Notes: generated by a model from the sequence alone, not told the origin. A stretch of 64,000 nt of DNA from an uncultured Peptococcaceae bacterium (GCA_937897635.1 CALCQI010000029.1:15748-79747); one strand, 5' to 3'. Counted from the first letter of the stretch, positions 995 through 41,111 are shown. Made by a program: numbers and translations.

Positions 995-1881
995 TAATAA
1001 CGCTCCTCCCGCTCCAGTAACTCCTCCAAAAGCATGATGTATCTTTCATACCTTTCTTTATTGAACTTACCTGTTGCCACAAGCTTTTTTACAGCACAAT
1101 CCGGTTCCTTGTAATGGCTGCAACCATCAAAACGGCATTTGCCCAAAACCTGCCTGATTTCAGGGTAATAGCTGGCAAGCAGTTCTTTTGTCATATCCTG
1201 CGGCAGATCCAAACGGGAAAAACCCGGGCTATCTGCCACCCAGCCACCGCAAGCAAGCGGTAAAAGCTGTACATGCCTTGTTGTATGTTTACCACGACCA
1301 AGCTTATTGCTGATTTCGCCAGTGGTTAAAGCCAAACCATCCTGAATCATATTCAAAATACTGGTTTTACCTACACCGCTTGGCCCCGCCATAATGCTGA
1401 TTTTATTTTTTAAGATATTTTGCAATTCCTCTTTACCCTTATTATTATGGATACCCGTAAACACTACCCTAAACCCTGCTTCCTTGTAAATATCGAAAGG
1501 AAACCTGCTTAAATCTGTAAATAAATCTTCTTTATTAAAGCAAACTACCGGTTCAATACCAGCATAGCCAACCAACACCAAAAGCCTGTCCAAAAGCATC
1601 CAATCGGGGCTGGGATCACGTACGGCAATAACCAAAACAGCTTGTTCTATATTGGCAGCCTTAGGACGTAAAAGCTGGTTTTGGCGCGGCAAAATTTCCT
1701 CAACCACTCCTTCGCCGTTGCCTAATGCCTGCATAAGCACCTTATCACCTACCAGTACACCTGCTTCAGCCTTTTTCAAACGCCCGCGCAAAGAACAGTT
1801 ATAAACTTGATTGCCAACCTGTACAAAGTAAAAACCCCCAAAGGCTTTTACTATAATACCGTTCAAAAGCTTATCTGACAT
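994..1881 (-). CDS. rsgA: Ribosome small-subunit-dependent GTPase A (RsgA/CpgA/YloQ)
   Basis: 295 aa; P-loop GPSGVGKTS and a C-terminal Zn-finger Cys cluster (CRFDGCSH..C). Overlaps rpe by 1 nt. Confidence 0.85.
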   Translation of the reverse strand: MSDKLLNGIIVKAFGGFYFVQVGNQVYNCSLRGRLKKAEAGVLVGDKVLMQALGNGEGVVEEILPRQNQLLRPKAANIEQAVLVIAVRDPSPDWMLLDRLLVLVGYAGIEPVVCFNKEDLFTDLSRFPFDIYKEAGFRVVFTGIHNNKGKEELQNILKNKISIMAGPSGVGKTSILNMIQDGLALTTGEISNKLGRGKHTTRHVQLLPLACGGWVADSPGFSRLDLPQDMTKELLASYYPEIRQVLGKCRFDGCSHYKEPDCAVKKLVATGKFNKERYERYIMLLEELLEREERY

Positions 1882-5600: not shown

Positions 5601-6953
5601 TTAATCAGTCTGCTTACACAAACGAGCCATAAAAAAGCCATCTATGCCATGGATATGCGGCCAAATTTGCCACATTGCGGCACCGTCGGTATGCCAACTT
5701 TCAGGCAGGTTAGGTATACTTTCCAACTTCCATTCAGGATGTTTTGCCAAAAAGGCTTCAATAACATCCCCGTTTTCTTCGCTTGCTACGGTACAAGTAC
5801 AATAAAGCAATGCCCCACCGGGCTTTACGCATTTTGCCGTGTTTTCAAGGATCCTACTGCCCATAGCAGCCATTTCCATAATTACGGCAGGGCTTTTCTG
5901 CCAGCGGGAATCCGCTCTTTTCTGCAATACACCTAAACCCGAACAAGGCGCATCTATCAAAGCATAATCCGCCCAGTTTTCCAAAGCTTTATTTGGCCTG
6001 GAGGAATCGCTTACTTGGCTTTTTACTATATTAACACCCAAGCGCTTACAATTTTGCTCTATCAATTGTATTTTGTGGGGGAACATATCAAAGGCGCGGA
6101 TTTCCCCTTGATTATTCATCAATTGTGCCAAATGAGTGCTTTTGCCACCGGGCGCGGCACAAACATCCATCACCTTACTACCGGGCACGGGAGCTAAAGC
6201 ATGCGCAGCCAGCATAGCACTTTCATGCTGGGGATACACTAGGCCCTTGCTGAAAATCTCCTGCTTTTGCAAAGCCGAGCCTTTGGGCAAATAAAGTGCA
6301 TCAGGTGCAGCTTCACCGCAGGTTACTTCTATATTATTTTTTTTGAACAACTCTATACATTCTGGTACAGAAATTTTTAGGGTATTTACTCTTACGGAAA
6401 AAGGTGCGGGCTGATTATCATATTCGCAAATAGCTATGGTAGCCATGGGGCTTATTTTATCCATCCAACGCTCCACCAGCCAACGTGGGTGAGAATAACA
6501 AACACTTATGTAATTTGCTAAATCCTTTTCCTTATCGGGAAAAGTTATTTTATCCCTTTCCCTGTCTATGGTACGCAAAGTTGCATTCACCAAGCCCACC
6601 GTACCCTGATGCCCATATTTTTTGGCCAACTCCACCGCTTCATTTATAGCCGCGGAAACAGGTATTTTATCCATATAGTAAAGCTGGTACACTCCCAGCC
6701 TTAAAATGAGTAATATCCACATTGGCAGCTTGGCTAATGGTTTTTTGGTAAATTGGTCAATTATATAATCTATGGTTCCTTGCTGGCGTAGTGTACCGTA
6801 AACCAGCTCCGTGGCAAGGCCGCTATCCACAAGAGGCATTTTATGCTTTTTCAATTCCTGGTTTAAGGCTATATTACTGTAGGCACCGTCTTTTTCTACC
6901 CTGCCCAAAACCAATAAGGCTACTTCTCTTGGGTTTGACTTTTGCATTTTCAA
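5601..6953 (-). CDS. rsmB: 16S rRNA m5C967 methyltransferase (RsmB/Sun)
   Basis: 450 aa; NusB-like N-terminus and a SAM-binding motif (DVCAAPGGKS). Position between fmt and rlmN. Confidence 0.85.
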   Translation of the reverse strand: MKMQKSNPREVALLVLGRVEKDGAYSNIALNQELKKHKMPLVDSGLATELVYGTLRQQGTIDYIIDQFTKKPLAKLPMWILLILRLGVYQLYYMDKIPVSAAINEAVELAKKYGHQGTVGLVNATLRTIDRERDKITFPDKEKDLANYISVCYSHPRWLVERWMDKISPMATIAICEYDNQPAPFSVRVNTLKISVPECIELFKKNNIEVTCGEAAPDALYLPKGSALQKQEIFSKGLVYPQHESAMLAAHALAPVPGSKVMDVCAAPGGKSTHLAQLMNNQGEIRAFDMFPHKIQLIEQNCKRLGVNIVKSQVSDSSRPNKALENWADYALIDAPCSGLGVLQKRADSRWQKSPAVIMEMAAMGSRILENTAKCVKPGGALLYCTCTVASEENGDVIEAFLAKHPEWKLESIPNLPESWHTDGAAMWQIWPHIHGIDGFFMARLCKQTD

Positions 6954-6954
6954 A

Positions 6955-7644
6955 TTAGTCCCTCCGCGCTCCCAACGCCAATAAAATAAACCTGAATAGA
7001 GTCAAAATAGACATAAGCAAAGCCGCTACATAAGTAAGAGCTGCCGCATCCAAAACCTTTTTGGCTTTCGGCACTTCATCACGAGTAAGGTAGCCGCCAC
7101 CTTCCAAAGCCGCTACAGCACGGGAAGAGGCATTATATTCCACAGGCAGGGTAACCAATTGAAAAAGCACTACCGCCAAAAACAGCACTACGCCTATAGC
7201 AGCAATATCAAAAGAACCCATAATCAAACCTATCACCAAAATTATCCAGGAAGCATAATTGCCAAAGTTTGCCACAGGCACTATCATAGAACGTATTTTT
7301 AAAGGCATATATTCCTGCGCGTCCTGAATTGCGTGCCCTACTTCGTGTGCCGCAACACCTATAGATGCCAAAGATGTGCTGTTATACACGCTGTCTGAAA
7401 GACGCAGAACTTGACTTCTGGGATCATAATGGTCAGTCAAATTGCCTCTGATATGCTCTATCCTTACATCGCCCAAACCATTGGAATCCAAAAGCGCACG
7501 TGCTACCTGAAAGGCCGTATAATTGTTACTGGACCATTCTTTGGAATATTTTTTAAAAGTAGACTGTACTTTCGATTGTGCCCAAATAGTAACGATAATG
7601 CCCGGTATCAACAAAATCATTGTATAGTCGAACCAATACATCAA
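6955..7644 (-). CDS. Membrane zinc metallopeptidase (Zn_peptidase_2/YugP-like family)
   Basis: 229 aa; HEVGHAIQ zinc motif and several TM segments. Confidence 0.55.
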   Translation of the reverse strand: MMYWFDYTMILLIPGIIVTIWAQSKVQSTFKKYSKEWSSNNYTAFQVARALLDSNGLGDVRIEHIRGNLTDHYDPRSQVLRLSDSVYNSTSLASIGVAAHEVGHAIQDAQEYMPLKIRSMIVPVANFGNYASWIILVIGLIMGSFDIAAIGVVLFLAVVLFQLVTLPVEYNASSRAVAALEGGGYLTRDEVPKAKKVLDAAALTYVAALLMSILTLFRFILLALGARRD

Positions 7645-7692
7645 TGTTCCTCCTTTTATTTATTAACAATCTATTTAACCTAAAAGTATCTT

Positions 7693-8655
7693 TTATTCAA
7701 ATAATGCGTTTTCTTTTTTTTGGCCACGCCACCAATCCACAGCCGCCATTACACCTTTGCCTGCTGGTTTTACCTTCAAAAGCTGCAACAAACCTTTGCC
7801 GCACACTACATTCACCTTATTGTTAGAAGATTTATAAACCGTGCCCACAGGCAAGGAACTTGATTCATCGCTTAAAGCAGCCAGAACTATTTTCAAGGGC
7901 TGACCTTCATACAAAGTATATGCCGCAGGACTCGGAGATAACCCCCTTATCAGGTTGCAAACAGCTGTATTTTCCTTATGCCAAGCAATTTTTTCCAAAG
8001 ACCTGTCGATTTTGGAAGCATAGCTGGCATGAGCATTTTCCTGCGGTTCCCTGGGTGCCAAGCCATCCGCTATCAAGGCAACCGTATCCACAATCAACTC
8101 ACTGCCGACCCTGGCAAGTTTATCATGCAAAGTGCCTATAGTATCCATAGGTTCTATGGCAACAGACTGCTGTAATATCATATCCCCCGTATCCAAGCCT
8201 TTATCCATATACATTGTGGTAATACCTGTTATATCCTCACCGTTTATGATAGCCCAATGAATAGGCGCAGCCCCCCTGTATTTAGGCAAAAGGGAAGCGT
8301 GAATGTTTACCGCTCCCAAAGGAGACAAATTCAATAACGGCTCTTTCAAAATCTGCCCAAAAGCCGTTACTACCAACAAATCGGGCTTTGCAGCCTTTAT
8401 TTGCGCCAAAAAAGCTTCCTCATTCACATTATTGGGGCTGATAACAGGCAAATTGCGGCTAATTGCAAATGCTTTTACAGGAGTTGGCGTCAAAACAGCC
8501 TTCCTGCCCTTGGGACGGTCAGGCTGAGTAACCACTAAAGAAATATTATAACCTGCTTCAAGCAAAGCCTTAAGCGGCAACACTGCAAAATCAGGGCTGC
8601 CCATATACACTATATTGAGCTTTTTTAATTTATTTTCTGTTTTAGCTTCTGTCAT
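7693..8655 (-). CDS. fmt: Methionyl-tRNA formyltransferase
   Basis: 320 aa; IVYMGSPDFAV N-terminus. SD AGGAG 5 nt before the ATG at 8655. Follows def. Confidence 0.9.
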   Translation of the reverse strand: MTEAKTENKLKKLNIVYMGSPDFAVLPLKALLEAGYNISLVVTQPDRPKGRKAVLTPTPVKAFAISRNLPVISPNNVNEEAFLAQIKAAKPDLLVVTAFGQILKEPLLNLSPLGAVNIHASLLPKYRGAAPIHWAIINGEDITGITTMYMDKGLDTGDMILQQSVAIEPMDTIGTLHDKLARVGSELIVDTVALIADGLAPREPQENAHASYASKIDRSLEKIAWHKENTAVCNLIRGLSPSPAAYTLYEGQPLKIVLAALSDESSSLPVGTVYKSSNNKVNVVCGKGLLQLLKVKPAGKGVMAAVDWWRGQKKENALFE

Positions 8656-24482: not shown

Positions 24483-24775
24483 AACCTCCCGTATAATTAT
24501 AAAATCATAAAAGCTGGGCTAATATAAAAAACCCCTCATCCCCCAATCAGGGACGAAAGGTTATTCCGTGGTACCACCCCACTTGCCATGCAAAAAACAC
24601 AGCCTCTTAACAAGGATAACGCCCTTTAACGGCTTTTCCTACTGGATTTCAGAAAAGCAACTCCAGAGGGACACCAAAACCCTGCTGATATGGGCTCACA
24701 CCGTACCCCACTCGCTGTAAAAGCAAATAGCTTCAGCCTGTCTCTATCATCGTTATTAGCTATAAAATAATAACT
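24483..24775 (-). promoter_or_regulatory. T-box riboswitch leader upstream of ilvD-ilvN-ilvB
   Basis: Minus strand shows an AGAGA box, then AGCGAGUGGGGUACGGUGUGAGCCC (near-identical to the glyQS leader distal motif in this window), then the T-box sequence GUGGGGUGGUACCACGG (+ coords 24566..24580), a hairpin and UUUUUU just before the ilvD SD. Confidence 0.6.
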
Positions 24776-35318: not shown

Positions 35319-37115
35319 TTAGTTTACCAAATACTCCGCTTTCAAAAGCCTTTGATAAAGCTGTTCATCTACTTTTGCTTCCACATAAATGCCTTCATTG
35401 CGATATTCCTCCAAGCTGATAGCGGCATCATTATGAAGTGCCGCAAGCATTGAAGCCTTGCTATAAGGCAACAGCACTTTTACAAAATGAGCGGCTCCCG
35501 GCAGCATTTCCGTGATTTCAGCCAAAAGCTCAGCTAAGCCGATCACCTTTTTAGCGGAAATAGCTACAGAATGCTCATAATGACCCAATAATCTTTTTAA
35601 GTAGCCCTCGCTTGTAATAGTATCCACTTTATTTATGGCAATAACAGTAGGCTTGTGTTCAGCTTTAAGATAAGACAAAACCTCTGTTACGGCCTTTACC
35701 TGCTCTTCCACTTCACTACCCGAACCATCCAAAACGTGCACCAACAAATCGGCTTCCACAACCTCTTCCAAAGTGGCTCGGAAAGCCGCTACCAAATGAT
35801 GCGGCAGCTTACGGATAAAACCCACTGTATCCGTAAGCAGTGCCTGACGGTTATCGGGCAGGGTAATTTTTCTGGTAGTAGTATCTAGTGTGGCAAAAAG
35901 TTTGTCCTCCGCCATTACATCAGAACCCGTTAAGGCATTCAGCAATGTGCTTTTGCCTGCATTTGTATAACCTACCAAAGCAATTACAGGTATGCTTTGG
36001 CCGGTTCTTTGTTCACGATGCAATTTACGGGTTTTAACTACTTGCTCCAAACGGCTTTCCAGCTCCGTTATCCTTTTGCGGATATTCCTGCGGTCAGCCT
36101 CCAGCTTGGTTTCGCCGGGACCCCTTGTACCTATGCCACCTCCCAAACGGGAAAGCACCTCGCCCTGCCCTACCAAGCGTGGCATCATATAGCGTAGCTG
36201 TGCTAATTCAACCTGGAGCTTGCCTTCATTGCTTTTGGCTCTGCCTGCAAAAATATCCAAAATAAGCATGGAACGGTCTATAATAGCTTTACCTGTTGTC
36301 TCCTCCAAGTTTCTGATCTGTACAGGAGAAAGTTCATCATCAAAAATAATGCTGTCTATACCTAAAATTTGGCATTTAAAGCGCAGTTCTTCCAGTTTGC
36401 CTTTGCCTATATAGGTTGCAGCATCAGGTACGGAACGTTTTTGCAGCATATTATCTACCACTACCAACCCTGCCGTATCAGCAAGCTGTTTCAGTTCCGC
36501 CAAACTGTATGAAGACATGGCCTCAGTGTCCCTGCCGCTTATAGCTACCAAAAGCGCCTTGGGAGCATCTTTGATTTCCTCATGAAATTCCAGTTTTTTT
36601 TCGGCTTCCTTTTCGATAAGCGAAACCTGTGCCTGCATATCTAAATTTAAGATACTTCCCAGATTAGGGTAAAGCAAAGGTTGTGGCAAATTTTTACCTA
36701 AAATCCCCCAAGCCAAACCCACATTAGTGGTTTTGCCTTCCGCATCCACACCTATTGCAACTATGCAATCAAAGCGTAAAAGCGGTAAAGCCGTTAAATC
36801 CACCATACTTAAAGTACCATCACCGCCCGGATGTGTATGAATACAGCGAAACCCCGAAAGACGGCTTTTAGCTTCTCTGCCTTTTAAGGCTTCCAAAGAA
36901 ACAGAATGATTATCCCCTACTTCAACATGGTTGATATGGCCTTTACGATCCACATAAAGCAAGATTTCCTTATTGATATTCGCTGTAATAACAGCAAGCT
37001 CATCCGCCAGTTCTTTAGAAACTATTTGGTTGCCCTGTAAAGTAAACTCTGTGAGCTTTTCAATTTTAGACAACCAAAACTTGCTTATACCACTAACATT
37101 TCCCTTGATTTCCAT
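35319..37115 (-). CDS. hflX: GTPase HflX with an N-terminal JAMM/MPN+-like extension
   Basis: HflX N/M domains and G1 GYTNAGKST, G3 DTVGF, G4 NKVD. SD GGGGAGG 4-5 nt before the ATG at 37115; the ORF track runs to a TTG at 37157. The extra N-terminus carries E..HTHPGGDGTLSMVD. Confidence 0.85.
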   Translation of the reverse strand: MEIKGNVSGISKFWLSKIEKLTEFTLQGNQIVSKELADELAVITANINKEILLYVDRKGHINHVEVGDNHSVSLEALKGREAKSRLSGFRCIHTHPGGDGTLSMVDLTALPLLRFDCIVAIGVDAEGKTTNVGLAWGILGKNLPQPLLYPNLGSILNLDMQAQVSLIEKEAEKKLEFHEEIKDAPKALLVAISGRDTEAMSSYSLAELKQLADTAGLVVVDNMLQKRSVPDAATYIGKGKLEELRFKCQILGIDSIIFDDELSPVQIRNLEETTGKAIIDRSMLILDIFAGRAKSNEGKLQVELAQLRYMMPRLVGQGEVLSRLGGGIGTRGPGETKLEADRRNIRKRITELESRLEQVVKTRKLHREQRTGQSIPVIALVGYTNAGKSTLLNALTGSDVMAEDKLFATLDTTTRKITLPDNRQALLTDTVGFIRKLPHHLVAAFRATLEEVVEADLLVHVLDGSGSEVEEQVKAVTEVLSYLKAEHKPTVIAINKVDTITSEGYLKRLLGHYEHSVAISAKKVIGLAELLAEITEMLPGAAHFVKVLLPYSKASMLAALHNDAAISLEEYRNEGIYVEAKVDEQLYQRLLKAEYLVN

Positions 37116-37162: not shown

Positions 37163-37867
37163 TTATTCCCAGGCAAATATGCCTTCATAATTTCCCGTTA
37201 ATGTTATTTCATTAAGATTGCCAACTCCGAAACCATATTGATGAGCCAAAACCAAATATTCCGCATCCCTAGTATCTGCTCCTGCATAAAGGGCAGACAA
37301 GCTATCCAAAGCAACGGCATCTGTAGAAGCAATTATAAAAGAAGGCTCATTACAGGTATTGGCCTCCACTATCAAATTATCCACGATATTGAATTGAGGT
37401 GTTAAGGTTTGGTATAGATCCACCAGTGCCCTTGCCGAATGGGTGGCCGTAAATTTATCCTTAGCTGCATTACTTAAAAGCGCTGTTAAATTATATATAG
37501 AAAGCGCAAAAGCGTTGCGATTCAAGCCAGCCATTGAGGCAACATTAAAAATAACATCCGCCTTGGCGGCTTTTTCGTATACTTCTATTTCCTCCACCAC
37601 CAAGGGTTCAGGTACTTTTACTTTTGTAAAAGTGTTGTTAGTTAAATTTGTACTTAAAGTAATATTTTCAATACCTTTTTCCGCTAAAGCTTCCTTAAGC
37701 GATTCTGCTAAAAACACAGCAGTGGCAGAGTGAAGATTTATTAAAACCACAGCATCGGGAAACAAAAAATTATTTATGCCGCCAAAAGGGGTAAAGATGT
37801 TTTGCAAAGCCTGTGTGATACTTTTTTTATCATCTTTATAAGCCTGCTCTACCGCAACTAAAGACAT
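37163..37867 (-). CDS. DUF362-like protein
   Basis: 234 aa; C-terminus IIASTDAVALD..YLVLAHQYGFGVGNLNEITLTG matches the DUF362 C-terminal region. SD AAGGAG 7 nt before the ATG. Confidence 0.45.
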   Translation of the reverse strand: MSLVAVEQAYKDDKKSITQALQNIFTPFGGINNFLFPDAVVLINLHSATAVFLAESLKEALAEKGIENITLSTNLTNNTFTKVKVPEPLVVEEIEVYEKAAKADVIFNVASMAGLNRNAFALSIYNLTALLSNAAKDKFTATHSARALVDLYQTLTPQFNIVDNLIVEANTCNEPSFIIASTDAVALDSLSALYAGADTRDAEYLVLAHQYGFGVGNLNEITLTGNYEGIFAWE

Positions 37868-38013
37868 TTGGCAACTCCTTAAGGTTATTTTTTAATACTG
37901 ATTATAAATAACTTTTTTATACAAATACACTTTTGATTTCATCTTTAATTATATAACATAGGCAGCTTAATTCCTAGTGCTTATTCAAAAATATGGTTGC
38001 AGAGGTGCTTTTA

Positions 38014-38043
38014 GAACAATAATAAGGCCACTCTTTTAGAGAA
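38014..38043 (-). terminator. Intrinsic terminator downstream of the MoaD-like gene
   Basis: AAGGCCACTCTT-TTAGAG-AAGAGTGGCCTT perfect 12-bp stem with a U-rich tract on the minus strand. Confidence 0.55.
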
Positions 38044-38065
38044 GAGTGGCCTTAAAAACATGGTT

Positions 38066-38299
38066 TTAACCGCCCAATACCACAGGTTGAATAACTATAT
38101 GATCGCCATCCTTGAGCAGTTGAGTTTTTTCTACCATGGTTCCATCTATACTAACAAGTTTTATTAGGTGGGCAGGAATATTAAAGTGGGTAAAAACTGC
38201 TTCTACTTGAGTATCCTGCTGCAGTTCAAGGCTTAAAGGCTCACGATGCCCCGTATATTGTTTTAAATAACCCTTGAATTCAACTGTAACGGAAATCAT
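38066..38299 (-). CDS. MoaD/ThiS-family ubiquitin-like sulfur-carrier protein ending in Gly-Gly
   Basis: 77 aa; beta-grasp pattern (..LKDGDHIVIQPVVLGG*). SD AGGTGA overlaps the ppdK stop, 6 nt before the ATG. Confidence 0.65.
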   Translation of the reverse strand: MISVTVEFKGYLKQYTGHREPLSLELQQDTQVEAVFTHFNIPAHLIKLVSIDGTMVEKTQLLKDGDHIVIQPVVLGG

Positions 38300-38309
38300 G
38301 TTTTATCAC

Positions 38310-40943
38310 CTATTTATTGCGGGGGCCATGGGCAATGGCAGCCTGAGCAGCAGCCAAACGGGCTACGGGCACACGGAAAGGAGAACAGCTTACATAATCC
38401 AAGCCCATGAGATAGCAGAATTCAATAGAAGAAGGATCGCCGCCATGTTCGCCGCAAATACCCAATTTTATATCAGGACGGGTAGCACGGCCTTTAACAA
38501 CTGCCATTTCCACCAACTGGCCAACACCTTTTCTGTCCAAACGAGCAAAGGGATCGGATTCATAGATTTTATTTTTATAATAATCATCCAAGAATTTACC
38601 TGCATCATCACGGGAGAAGCCAAAAGTCATCTGGCTCAAATCATTGGTGCCGAAGGAGAAAAATTCGGCTTCGGTAGCAATTTCATCTGCCGTTAAAGCA
38701 GCACGGGGGATTTCTATCATAGTACCTACCATATATTTCATTTCAATACCGGATGCAGCAATTACTTCATCAGCAGTTGCTTTAACAACATCTTTAACAA
38801 ATTTAAGCTCTTTGATTTCGCCTACTAAGGGGATCATGATTTCAGGTACAATATTAAAACCTTTTTCCTTTTTCACTTGAACCGCAGCCTCTATAATGGC
38901 ACGGGTCTGCATTTCGGCAATTTCAGGATAAGTAACAGCCAAACGGCAGCCACGGTGACCCATCATGGGGTTAAATTCATGCAGGGAATCGATTTTAACT
39001 TTAAGATCAGCAATACTAACATTCATATCCTTAGACAGTTCGGCAATGGTTTCATCGTCTTGGGGCAGGAATTCATGAAGCGGGGGATCCAAAAGACGTA
39101 CGGTAACGGGGCGTTCACCCATTACTTCATAAATACCAACAAAGTCTGCTTTTTGGAAGGGCAATAATTCCGTCAAAGCGGCTTTTCTTGCTTCCACAGT
39201 TTCGGATAAAATCATTTTCCTCATTTTGGGAATACGTTCTTCATCAAAGAACATATGCTCGGTACGGGTCAAACCAATACCTTCGGCACCAAAATCAACA
39301 GCGTTTTGGGCATCCCTTGGGGTATCCGCATTAGTACGCACCTTCATGCAGCGATATTCATCCGTCCATTTCATAAAACGCGCAAAATCGCCTGAAATGG
39401 AAGGCTCATTGGTTTTAACATCGCCTAAATAAACATTGCCTGTGGAACCATCTAAGGAGATATAATCGCCTTCTTTTACGGTTACACCGTTTATGGTAAA
39501 GTATTTTTCTTCTTCATGCATTTTAATATCGCCGCAACCTGCTACACAGCAGGTACCCATACCACGGGCAACTACCGCTGCGTGGGAGGTCATGCCACCG
39601 CGAACCGTTAAAATACCCTGAGAAACCATCATGCCCTCAATATCTTCAGGAGAAGTTTCCAAACGAGCAAGCACTACCCTATTGCCTGCTTCCTTAGCCG
39701 CTTTGGCTTCTTCAGCAGTGAAATATACTTTACCTGCCGCAGCGCCGGGGGATGCGGGCAAACCGGTAGTCAAAACCTTAGAGGCTTTCAAGGATCCCGC
39801 ATCAAATACAGGGTGCAATAAAGCATCTAGTTGTTTTGGCTCTACACGGGCAACAGCTTCTTTTTCGGTGATCATTTTCTCATCTACCATATCTACGGCA
39901 ATTTTCAAAGCTGCCGCAGCGGTACGTTTGCCGTTACGGGTTTGCAGGAAGAACAATTTTTTATCCTCAATGGTAAATTCCATATCCTGCATATCCCTGT
40001 AGTGTTTTTCCAAGGTTTGAGCAATATCCATAAACTGCTTGTAAGCTTCGGGCATATCTTTTTCCAAAGTAGCAATGGGGCTTGGCGTGCGAATACCGGC
40101 AACTACGTCTTCACCTTGAGCATTGATAAGATACTCACCAAAAATAAGTTTTTCGCCTGTAGCAGGGTTACGGGTAAAAGCAACACCTGTGCCGGAAGTA
40201 TCACCCATATTGCCAAATACCATCATTTGTACGTTTACTGCAGTACCCCAATCACCGGGAATATCGTTCATGCGACGGTAAACAATGGCACGGGGATTAT
40301 CCCAAGAACGAAATACTGCTTTTACAGATTCCAATAGTTGGGTTTTGGGTTCCTGAGGGAATTCTGTTCCCATTTCTTTTTTATAAAAGTCTTTATATTT
40401 AACAACTATGTCTTTCCAATCTTCAGCCGTCATATCCGTATCCAGGTGAATATTTTTTGCTTCTTTTATTTCATCAAGCACTCTTTCAAAAGAGGCTTTG
40501 GGAAGACCCATAACAACATCTGAAAACATTTGGATGAAACGACGATAAGAATCATAAGCAAAGCGGGGATTATTAGTTCTTCTTGCCAAGCTTTCTACCG
40601 CTACATCGTTTAAACCCAAATTCAAAATCGTATCCATCATACCGGGCATGGAAGCACGTGCACCGGAACGAACTGAAACTAAAAGAGGATTCTCTATATC
40701 ACCGAATTTTTTTTGGGAAATTTTTTCCAATTCAGCCATAGCAACATCAATTTGCCCTATGATCCCATCACTAATTTTGCCGCCTTGAGCATAATAATCA
40801 TTGCAGGCTTCTGTAGTAACCGTAAAACCTTGAGGAATAGGCATGCCCAAATTGGTCATTTCCGCCAGGTTAGCGCCTTTACCACCTAATAAGGGTTTCA
40901 TGGAAGCATTGCCTTCTTTAAACATGTAAACAAATTTCTGCAT
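38310..40943 (-). CDS. ppdK: Pyruvate, phosphate dikinase
   Basis: 877 aa; N-terminus LLGGKGANLAEMT, phospho-His region GGMTSHAAVVARG, PEP-utilizing C-terminal TIM barrel. Confidence 0.9.
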   Translation of the reverse strand: MQKFVYMFKEGNASMKPLLGGKGANLAEMTNLGMPIPQGFTVTTEACNDYYAQGGKISDGIIGQIDVAMAELEKISQKKFGDIENPLLVSVRSGARASMPGMMDTILNLGLNDVAVESLARRTNNPRFAYDSYRRFIQMFSDVVMGLPKASFERVLDEIKEAKNIHLDTDMTAEDWKDIVVKYKDFYKKEMGTEFPQEPKTQLLESVKAVFRSWDNPRAIVYRRMNDIPGDWGTAVNVQMMVFGNMGDTSGTGVAFTRNPATGEKLIFGEYLINAQGEDVVAGIRTPSPIATLEKDMPEAYKQFMDIAQTLEKHYRDMQDMEFTIEDKKLFFLQTRNGKRTAAAALKIAVDMVDEKMITEKEAVARVEPKQLDALLHPVFDAGSLKASKVLTTGLPASPGAAAGKVYFTAEEAKAAKEAGNRVVLARLETSPEDIEGMMVSQGILTVRGGMTSHAAVVARGMGTCCVAGCGDIKMHEEEKYFTINGVTVKEGDYISLDGSTGNVYLGDVKTNEPSISGDFARFMKWTDEYRCMKVRTNADTPRDAQNAVDFGAEGIGLTRTEHMFFDEERIPKMRKMILSETVEARKAALTELLPFQKADFVGIYEVMGERPVTVRLLDPPLHEFLPQDDETIAELSKDMNVSIADLKVKIDSLHEFNPMMGHRGCRLAVTYPEIAEMQTRAIIEAAVQVKKEKGFNIVPEIMIPLVGEIKELKFVKDVVKATADEVIAASGIEMKYMVGTMIEIPRAALTADEIATEAEFFSFGTNDLSQMTFGFSRDDAGKFLDDYYKNKIYESDPFARLDRKGVGQLVEMAVVKGRATRPDIKLGICGEHGGDPSSIEFCYLMGLDYVSCSPFRVPVARLAAAQAAIAHGPRNK

Positions 40944-41111
40944 TTTTATTCACTCCCCCTTTAAATTTAGCCCCTTGTTTGGTTTCAAAATTAAAAAACT
41001 TTGAAATATCATACTAATTTTACAGGATTCCTAATAATATGTCCAGCTACCAAATCAAGTATATTTAATGCAATACTTAATAGCCAGCTATATCAATGTT
41101 TCACTAAATAA

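Follow-up and report, generated by a model that had tools for sequence, protein, structure and literature searches.

A MoaD/ThiS-superfamily protein with a C-terminal Gly-Gly encoded directly behind ppdK in a small clade of uncultured Clostridia

Results

A small Gly-Gly protein gene follows ppdK

The window analysed here is a stretch of 64,000 nucleotides from the genome of an uncultured Peptococcaceae bacterium. On its minus strand, the gene for pyruvate phosphate dikinase (PPDK) is followed by a short ORF whose product, MISVTVEFKGYLKQYTGHREPLSLELQQDTQVEAVFTHFNIPAHLIKLVSIDGTMVEKTQLLKDGDHIVIQPVVLGG, has 77 residues and the C-terminus VVLGG (Table 1); we refer to this protein as Ubl. Reading of the sequence confirmed what a preliminary description of the window had reported, namely a Gly-Gly-ending ORF of this length 10 nt past the ppdK stop, with a Shine-Dalgarno sequence overlapping that stop. 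The ppdK gene is complete, its stop codon TAG occupies 38310..38312, and the 10-nt spacer that separates it from Ubl reads GTGATAAAAC. The Shine-Dalgarno sequence matches its anti-Shine-Dalgarno counterpart over 7 nt.

Eleven nucleotides past the Ubl stop codon lies an intrinsic terminator with a 13-bp stem and a 6-nt loop (dG -21.2 kcal/mol, z = -6.2 against shuffles). The hairpin that had been described at this place is thus real, while its earlier coordinates (38014..38043) were about 10 nt off. Upstream of ppdK, a promoter-like site is a candidate start of the ppdK-Ubl transcript; promoter-like sites are rarer in its region than in shuffles of that region, and the site is a consensus match alone.

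Table 1. Features in and around the ppdK-Ubl unit and elsewhere in the window
Feature	Position	Strand	Remarks
Promoter-like site TGGACA-17-TAAAAT upstream of ppdK	41017..41045	-	10/12 consensus matches; candidate transcript start
ppdK, pyruvate phosphate dikinase, 877 aa	38310..40943	-	cistron 1; strong PPDK_N, PEP-utilizers and PEP-utilizers_C matches
Shine-Dalgarno sequence AGGTGAT of Ubl	38305..38311	-	overlaps ppdK TAG; 5 nt before ATG
Ubl, 77-aa MoaD/ThiS-superfamily beta-grasp protein, C-terminal Gly-Gly	38066..38299	-	cistron 2, behind ppdK
Intrinsic terminator of the ppdK-Ubl unit	38013..38054	-	stem 38023..38054, U-rich tail 38013..38022
Block conserved with L007, holding TGTTATATAAT (extended -10-like)	37948..37996	-	alignment with L007 ~1714..1765; likely promoter
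DUF362 protein, 234 aa	37163..37867	-	PF04015, 51 bits; predicted first gene of a separate downstream unit
HflX GTPase, 598 aa, with extra N-terminal JAMM-like domain	35319..37115	-	TIGR03156, 473 bits
JAMM-like domain of HflX	~36711..37115	-	motif codons 36798..36839
T-box leader	24546..24759	-	Rfam RF00230, 109.7 bits; upstream of ilvD and acetolactate synthase (ilvB/ilvN-type) genes

Fold and family placement of Ubl

In its NCBI record (MDD2568179.1), Ubl is already labelled 'MoaD/ThiS family protein [Clostridia bacterium]'. Its score against the Pfam ThiS family (PF02597) was 23.4 bits, a narrow margin over the gathering cutoff of 22.5, and the alignment joined Ubl residues 10-77 to profile positions 5-76 of 76. 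An AlphaFold2 model built from a 40-sequence alignment was a confident beta-grasp (pLDDT 91.9, pTM 0.77) with the secondary-structure order E-H-E-H-E-E-E. When compared with the PDB by Foldseek, this model gave TM scores of 0.65-0.81 to SAMP1, MoaD and Urm1, the top matches being SAMP1 (3po0) and the MoaD entries 1nvi, 1fm0, 1vjk and 6jbz, which are E. coli and mycobacterial MoaD and a P. furiosus MoaD-like protein. Residues D66, G76 and G77 were invariant among the 40 aligned relatives. The Pfam score, the modelled fold and the VVLGG* end all bear out the earlier assignment: Ubl has the beta-grasp fold of the MoaD/ThiS superfamily, and its C-terminal Gly-Gly is free.

A word-indexed protein search with Ubl returned two homologues only; the wider family became visible when 1.84 billion representative proteins were searched exhaustively with HMMER, which gave 195 matches at E <= 1e-3. 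Among the 150 matches listed of these 195, nearly all are 74-90 aa long, align end to end and have a GG terminus. The preliminary description had left the choice between MoaD, ThiS, CysO and TtuB to a profile search. In ours, a profile of the 40 family sequences matched, among PDB entries, the P. furiosus MoaD-like protein 1vjk best (1.9e-12), followed by PfSAMP2 (2e-9), with weaker matches to E. coli MoaD (~1e-6), ThiS (1.6e-5), CysO (2e-3) and TtuB (0.06). On these E-values Ubl is, as far as profile similarity goes, MoaD/SAMP-like rather than ThiS-, CysO- or TtuB-like. It fell below the cutoffs of the NCBIfam MoaD models (TIGR01687 moaD_arch, 16 bits against 49.5; NF008347, 12.9 against 94), and no NCBIfam ThiS model was reported at E <= 1. 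The Pfam family Ub-Mut7C (PF14451) was not reached either (17 bits, gathering cutoff 23), and 39 of the 40 family members fit it about as well as they fit ThiS.

Some candidate relationships were discarded. Matches to DARPin and ankyrin proteins, obtained with a two-sequence profile against the PDB, were an artefact of a short 'YTGH.E...L..gA.V' motif summed over repeats and were gone with the 40-sequence profile. A Ubl defence system of the Bil/CBASS type was rejected since PADLOC gave no match for the Ubl, DUF362 and PHP proteins, and for HflX it gave generic GTPase similarity only. Some members of the wider family are fused to further domains (Mut7-C, CN hydrolase, TM1506, tandem Ubl), but these vary too much to point to a function.

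Conservation of the ppdK-Ubl pair

More than 20 contigs, all from a single uncultured Clostridia species, encode an identical Ubl, and the gene order is glyQS-ppdK-Ubl-DUF362-hflX-PHP-addBA in every case. On seven contigs of this species compared with the window the Ubl protein is identical, and the only nucleotide difference, a single one found in two of the seven, is synonymous. Four MAGs of the species are available at NCBI. Fragmented hflX, addB and ppdK genes in two MAGs (GCA_036789305.1 and GCA_036797205.1; L001 11137..12040, L002) reflect N-masked stretches and small indels relative to the window and no real disruption. An ENA contig of 1246 nt from the same species (P0001) encodes a Ubl variant without the four residues IQPV right before VLGG, a deletion that could be either a real population variant or an assembly error.

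In the collections searched, only two diverged Ubl orthologues were found, both metagenomic. One (P0002, locus L007) is 62% identical to Ubl and lies 17 nt past ppdK; over its C-terminal 438 residues, the PPDK encoded there shares 93% identity with that of the window. The other (P0003, loci L016 to L018) is 50% identical by pairwise alignment and lies 23 nt past ppdK, the C-terminal region of which is 78% identical to that of the window. In L007 and L016 the 17- and 23-nt spacers are Shine-Dalgarno-like, and a strong hairpin with a U-run follows Ubl (dG -22.5 and -28.9 kcal/mol). Three lineages thus share ppdK, a Shine-Dalgarno spacer of 10, 17 or 23 nt, Ubl and a strong hairpin. The genes beyond the terminator differ, with a membrane protein gene in L007 and a convergent AP_endonuc_2 gene in L016; DUF362 follows in neither. 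In all three lineages the Ubl ORF is intact and retains the D-G-D motif, Pro72 and the GG terminus. The motif GYLK-x-YTGHREP is invariant in this clade and missing from the consensus of the wider family. Nei-Gojobori dN/dS values for Ubl against the 62% and 50% orthologues were ~0.11 and 0.21, with dS saturated. With the Pfam score and the modelled fold, these values mark Ubl as a real gene, beyond a chance ORF, and point to purifying selection.

As controls we took 80 ppdK loci of GTDB species representatives, mostly Clostridia, with ppdK 69-76% identical to that of the window and, in 71 of them, at least 600 nt of downstream sequence. An HMM of Ubl found no Ubl within 10 kb of any of these 80 genes. 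A search with the three-sequence Ubl alignment had no match in the GTDB genome collection, and JGI metagenomes gave the same species alone. It seems that the GTDB species representatives do not include the lineage itself: their best match to ppdK has only 76% identity, and the Ubl patterns match none of them.

Because the arrangement is shared by two relatives while Ubl does not occur in the 80 control loci, the promoter-like site, ppdK, Ubl and the terminator are, judged by their sequence and order, a clade-specific conserved bicistronic operon. This answers in the affirmative the earlier question of whether the ppdK-MoaD adjacency recurs in relatives. It also strengthens the earlier proposal of co-expression: since two diverged relatives have this two-gene arrangement too, terminator included, Ubl is almost certainly co-expressed with ppdK. 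The link of Ubl to DUF362 and HflX is, by the same comparison, specific to the species of the window.

Partner genes and the context of distant relatives

The preliminary description had found none of the usual partner genes in the window, and this holds for a larger region. No gene of the ThiF/MoeB, MoaE, ThiG/H, CysM or AOR (aldehyde:ferredoxin oxidoreductase) families, and no other molybdenum- or tungsten-cofactor (Moco/Wco) biosynthesis or thi gene, was found in the window and the 10 kb past each of its edges (~84 kb), and the Ubl HMM found no second copy of Ubl in the window.

The gene context was read for five relatives outside the ppdK clade. One that is 41% identical to Ubl (P0006) lies 18 nt upstream of an AOR gene. 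P0042 is directly downstream of an AOR gene that has ThiF two genes before it and is also flanked by MoCF_biosynth, two MoeA genes and an ABC transporter. For P0159, too, the gene directly upstream encodes AOR. P0005 and a ThiF gene are arranged divergently, and P0004 lies between an FTCD-type gene and Hsp33. AOR therefore adjoins three of the five sampled relatives and ThiF is near two, so that, within these five contexts, the closest relatives of Ubl include AOR-adjacent MoaDs. Ubl itself does not adjoin an AOR gene; its neighbours are ppdK and DUF362.

The downstream unit and the JAMM-HflX gene

Right after the Ubl terminator, a block of ~50 nt is nearly identical between the window and L007, though the genes that follow it differ. 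It is likely, from this conservation and its extended -10-like element, that the block is the promoter of the next transcription unit, separate from that of Ubl, and that it probably stayed where it was as other genes came to lie downstream of it.

The first gene of that predicted unit encodes a DUF362 protein. LarA enzymes use a sulfur-containing nickel-pincer cofactor. Genes of the LarA-type clan (DUF362/Lar_N, CL0471; PMC11770544) occur one to four genes from Ubl or its relatives in three independent contexts (37163..37867 on the minus strand of the window, L013 2829..4121 and L100 6340..7485), which may be chance.

The HflX encoded next is extended at its N-terminus by ~190 aa, in which no Pfam family was matched. 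This extension contains E50...H93-T-H95-PGGDGTL-S103-MV-D106, which fits the JAMM motif EXnHS/THX7SXXD (PMC300881) exactly, with all elements present. The same N-terminal domain was found, by tblastn against plasmid records, in a Fusobacterium HflX (WP_016339937.1, 600 aa) that is annotated only as 'GTPase HflX'; the two proteins are 42% identical overall and all five JAMM residues are invariant. The JAMM-like HflX region is placed at ~36711..37115 on the minus strand of the window; in locus L106, HflX with this domain is at 5998..7800. A single-sequence model of the domain, with a pLDDT of only 55, had Rpn11, PfJAMM1 and CSN5 as top Foldseek matches (E ~4e-3). Pfam RadC and Prok-JAB matched the Fusobacterium copy below threshold (E 0.025 and 0.069) and did not match the window copy, a two-sequence profile gave marginal AMSH and cytidine-deaminase matches only, and neither a PDB sequence search nor the word-indexed protein search returned a match for the HflX N-terminus. 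Given the exact motif and the presence of the same domain in the Fusobacterium protein, the JAMM label, which the preliminary description had already used, appears reasonable, and this architecture also exists outside this genome. A literature search on HflX with JAMM or JAB found nothing relevant on a fusion between HflX, which is a ribosome-splitting GTPase, and a metalloprotease-like domain.

Discussion

We consider it somewhat probable, on balance, that Ubl is a sulfur carrier of the MoaD type whose gene left an AOR/cofactor cluster for the 3' end of ppdK, where it would be co-transcribed and translationally coupled, with an unlinked E1 to activate its product. The MoaD copies linked to AOR genes are its nearest sequence relatives (30-41% identity), and Ubl most likely descends, to judge from these similarities, from MoaD copies that travel with tungsten AOR genes. 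Such AOR-linked MoaD genes, possibly forming a mobile cluster, were described by Iyer, Burroughs and Aravind in 2006 (PMC1779556), the same association was reported in archaea by Makarova and Koonin (PMC2948915), and TK1065 of Thermococcus kodakarensis adjoins AOR (PMC11323500). Like Ubl, the AOR-linked proteins have ~76-80 residues, a beta-grasp fold and the consensus ...L.DGD.I.ifP..aGG. Unlike them, Ubl is encoded behind ppdK, with no AOR, E1 or cofactor gene near, and bears the clade-specific motif K-x-YTGHREP. The preliminary description had itself named a simply relocated carrier as the outcome that would undo its proposal, and the family relationships favour that outcome.

According to this model, the Ubl gene would have been inserted directly behind ppdK in an ancestor shared by a small clade of uncultured Clostridia. 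As the sequence strongly suggests, it would be the second cistron of a transcript that starts at the ppdK promoter and ends at the hairpin 11 nt past the stop, and would be translated by coupling or re-initiation at AGGTGAT-N5-ATG. By analogy with the family, a MoeB/ThiF-type E1 encoded elsewhere in the genome would then adenylate the Gly-Gly terminus, which would be turned into a thiocarboxylate. In the most tentative step, suggested by the relatives, the sulfur may be passed to a thio-cofactor pathway, most probably molybdopterin or tungstopterin synthesis for AOR-type enzymes. The link to ppdK would then be one of expression (constitutive, high and glycolysis-linked), with no shared reaction.

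Several observations count against a relocated carrier. No E1, MoaE, Moco/Wco gene or AOR lies within ~84 kb of Ubl, and no specific NCBIfam MoaD model matches it. Co-translation with a glycolytic enzyme that is typically abundant would also supply far more carrier than cofactor synthesis normally requires. In addition, the tight adjacency to ppdK was kept while Ubl diverged to 50% identity, which speaks against relocation alone and could reflect a functional tie to PPDK.

Canonical E. coli MoaD, as seen in the MoaD-MoaE and MoeB-MoaD structures (1fm0, 1nvi, 1jwb), shares the fold (TM 0.65-0.66) and the C-terminal GG with Ubl. In contrast to canonical MoaD, Ubl has no moaE, moaA or moaC neighbours and misses the NCBIfam MoaD equivalog. 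ThiS (1f0z) is, like Ubl, a PF02597 member ending in GG, but it is shorter (66 aa); Ubl lacks thiF, thiG and thiH neighbours and its profile match to ThiS is weaker than that to the MoaD type. As to Ub-Mut7C, one relative, P0083, is fused to a Mut7-C RNase domain, whereas Ubl stands alone with a free GG.

It is also conceivable, though unlikely, that Ubl works with PPDK, either as a non-covalent small subunit or regulator or as a covalent modifier of PPDK or other glycolytic proteins. Such a role would explain why selection keeps Ubl translationally coupled to ppdK. The three lineages share no other neighbour; their spacers measure 10-23 nt, the pair has a dedicated terminator, and the genes downstream differ. 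The clade-invariant GYLK-x-YTGHREP could then be a new interaction surface, and there is a parallel in the MoaD-type Ubls of T. kodakarensis, which supply sulfur for the tungsten cofactor and in addition become conjugated to proteins (PMC11323500). However, the 80 ppdK loci that have no Ubl indicate that PPDK is not generally in need of such a partner, our literature search on PPDK with MoaD or ThiS found no biochemical precedent, and gene order in three related lineages can be plain inheritance.

With this in mind, one may speculate further that Ubl was captured into the ppdK operon to serve central carbon metabolism, a broader idea to which we give slightly less credence still. According to this speculation, Ubl would act either as a covalent modifier or small subunit of PPDK or as a dedicated carrier that brings sulfur to the tungsten cofactor of a GAPOR-like glycolytic enzyme of the AOR family; in its boldest form, the ribosome-associated JAMM-HflX would strip Ubl from its targets. 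In the GAPOR-like variant, Ubl could be co-regulated with PPi-dependent glycolysis, the parallel being UblB of T. kodakarensis, which is needed for glycolytic growth (PMC11323500).

The preliminary description had likened Ubl and the nearby JAMM-HflX to Ubl conjugation/deconjugation modules, and one may picture Ubl as a SAMP/TtuB-like modifier with the HflX JAMM as its isopeptidase, possibly acting at the ribosome. We regard this as very unlikely. The comparison with archaeal SAMP1/SAMP2 and P. furiosus SAMP2-JAMM1 (3po0, 4hro, 5lda, 5ld9) is attractive in that Ubl has a free GG terminus, SAMP1 is its top structural match, PfSAMP2 is the second-best profile match of its family, and the same strand encodes, at a distance of 0.9 kb, a JAMM motif that is complete and shared by Fusobacterium. 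In contrast to the archaeal systems, the host is bacterial and the JAMM domain is fused to HflX and belongs to another transcription unit, behind a strong terminator and a conserved promoter-like block. Nor is the adjacency conserved: it is absent in both ppdK-Ubl relatives (L007 and L016), no Ubl ORF lies within 6 kb of the Fusobacterium JAMM-HflX gene, and a tblastn search with Ubl had no match in a 2.1-Mb Fusobacterium replicon that carries JAMM-HflX or in the plasmid records as a whole. CysO-Mec+, QbsE-QbsD and HcyS-HcyD likewise combine a GG-motif Ubl with a JAMM-family protein in the vicinity. In these modules the JAMM protein processes the C-terminus of the carrier or releases the product, and an E1 and a sulfur-accepting enzyme are encoded in the same operon. 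Unlike their carriers, Ubl already ends in GG, so that no JAMM processing is needed, and it has no E1 and no CysM/MetY near it and only a weak CysO profile match. The Ubl locus therefore does not present the conserved neighbourhood of Ubl, JAMM peptidase and E1, and on the best reading of gene order JAMM-HflX appears to be an unrelated neighbour of Ubl, with no sign of joint work.

Least probable of all is that Ubl is a passenger in decay or without function, left over from an AOR/MoaD cluster and surviving only through its place inside a strongly expressed operon: its much faster evolution than that of ppdK (62% against 93% identity between window and L007), the four-residue deletion before the GG tail in one variant and the lack of partner genes nearby would fit, but the ORF is intact with D-G-D, Pro72 and GG kept in three lineages, dN/dS is well below 1, the protein is identical on seven same-species contigs whose lone difference, in two of them, is synonymous, and the Shine-Dalgarno sequence and terminator are conserved.

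Ubl was already annotated as a MoaD/ThiS family protein; its operon context is unusual and narrowly distributed. If Ubl is a relocated carrier, annotators should take a 'MoaD/ThiS family protein' beside ppdK neither for a subunit of PPDK nor for a ubiquitin-like system. The nearby JAMM-HflX may be the more interesting lead, as an intact and unannotated JAMM-like domain on a ribosome-splitting GTPase, found in a Clostridia genome and in Fusobacterium. Should the coupling to ppdK prove to be a functional tie, Ubl would act on or for a glycolytic enzyme in bacteria, which would matter more. If Ubl is a relocated carrier, as we favour, it is one more orphan MoaD-type carrier, which is not surprising; it would mean that mobile, AOR-linked MoaD genes can detach from their clusters and survive by hitch-hiking on a housekeeping operon.
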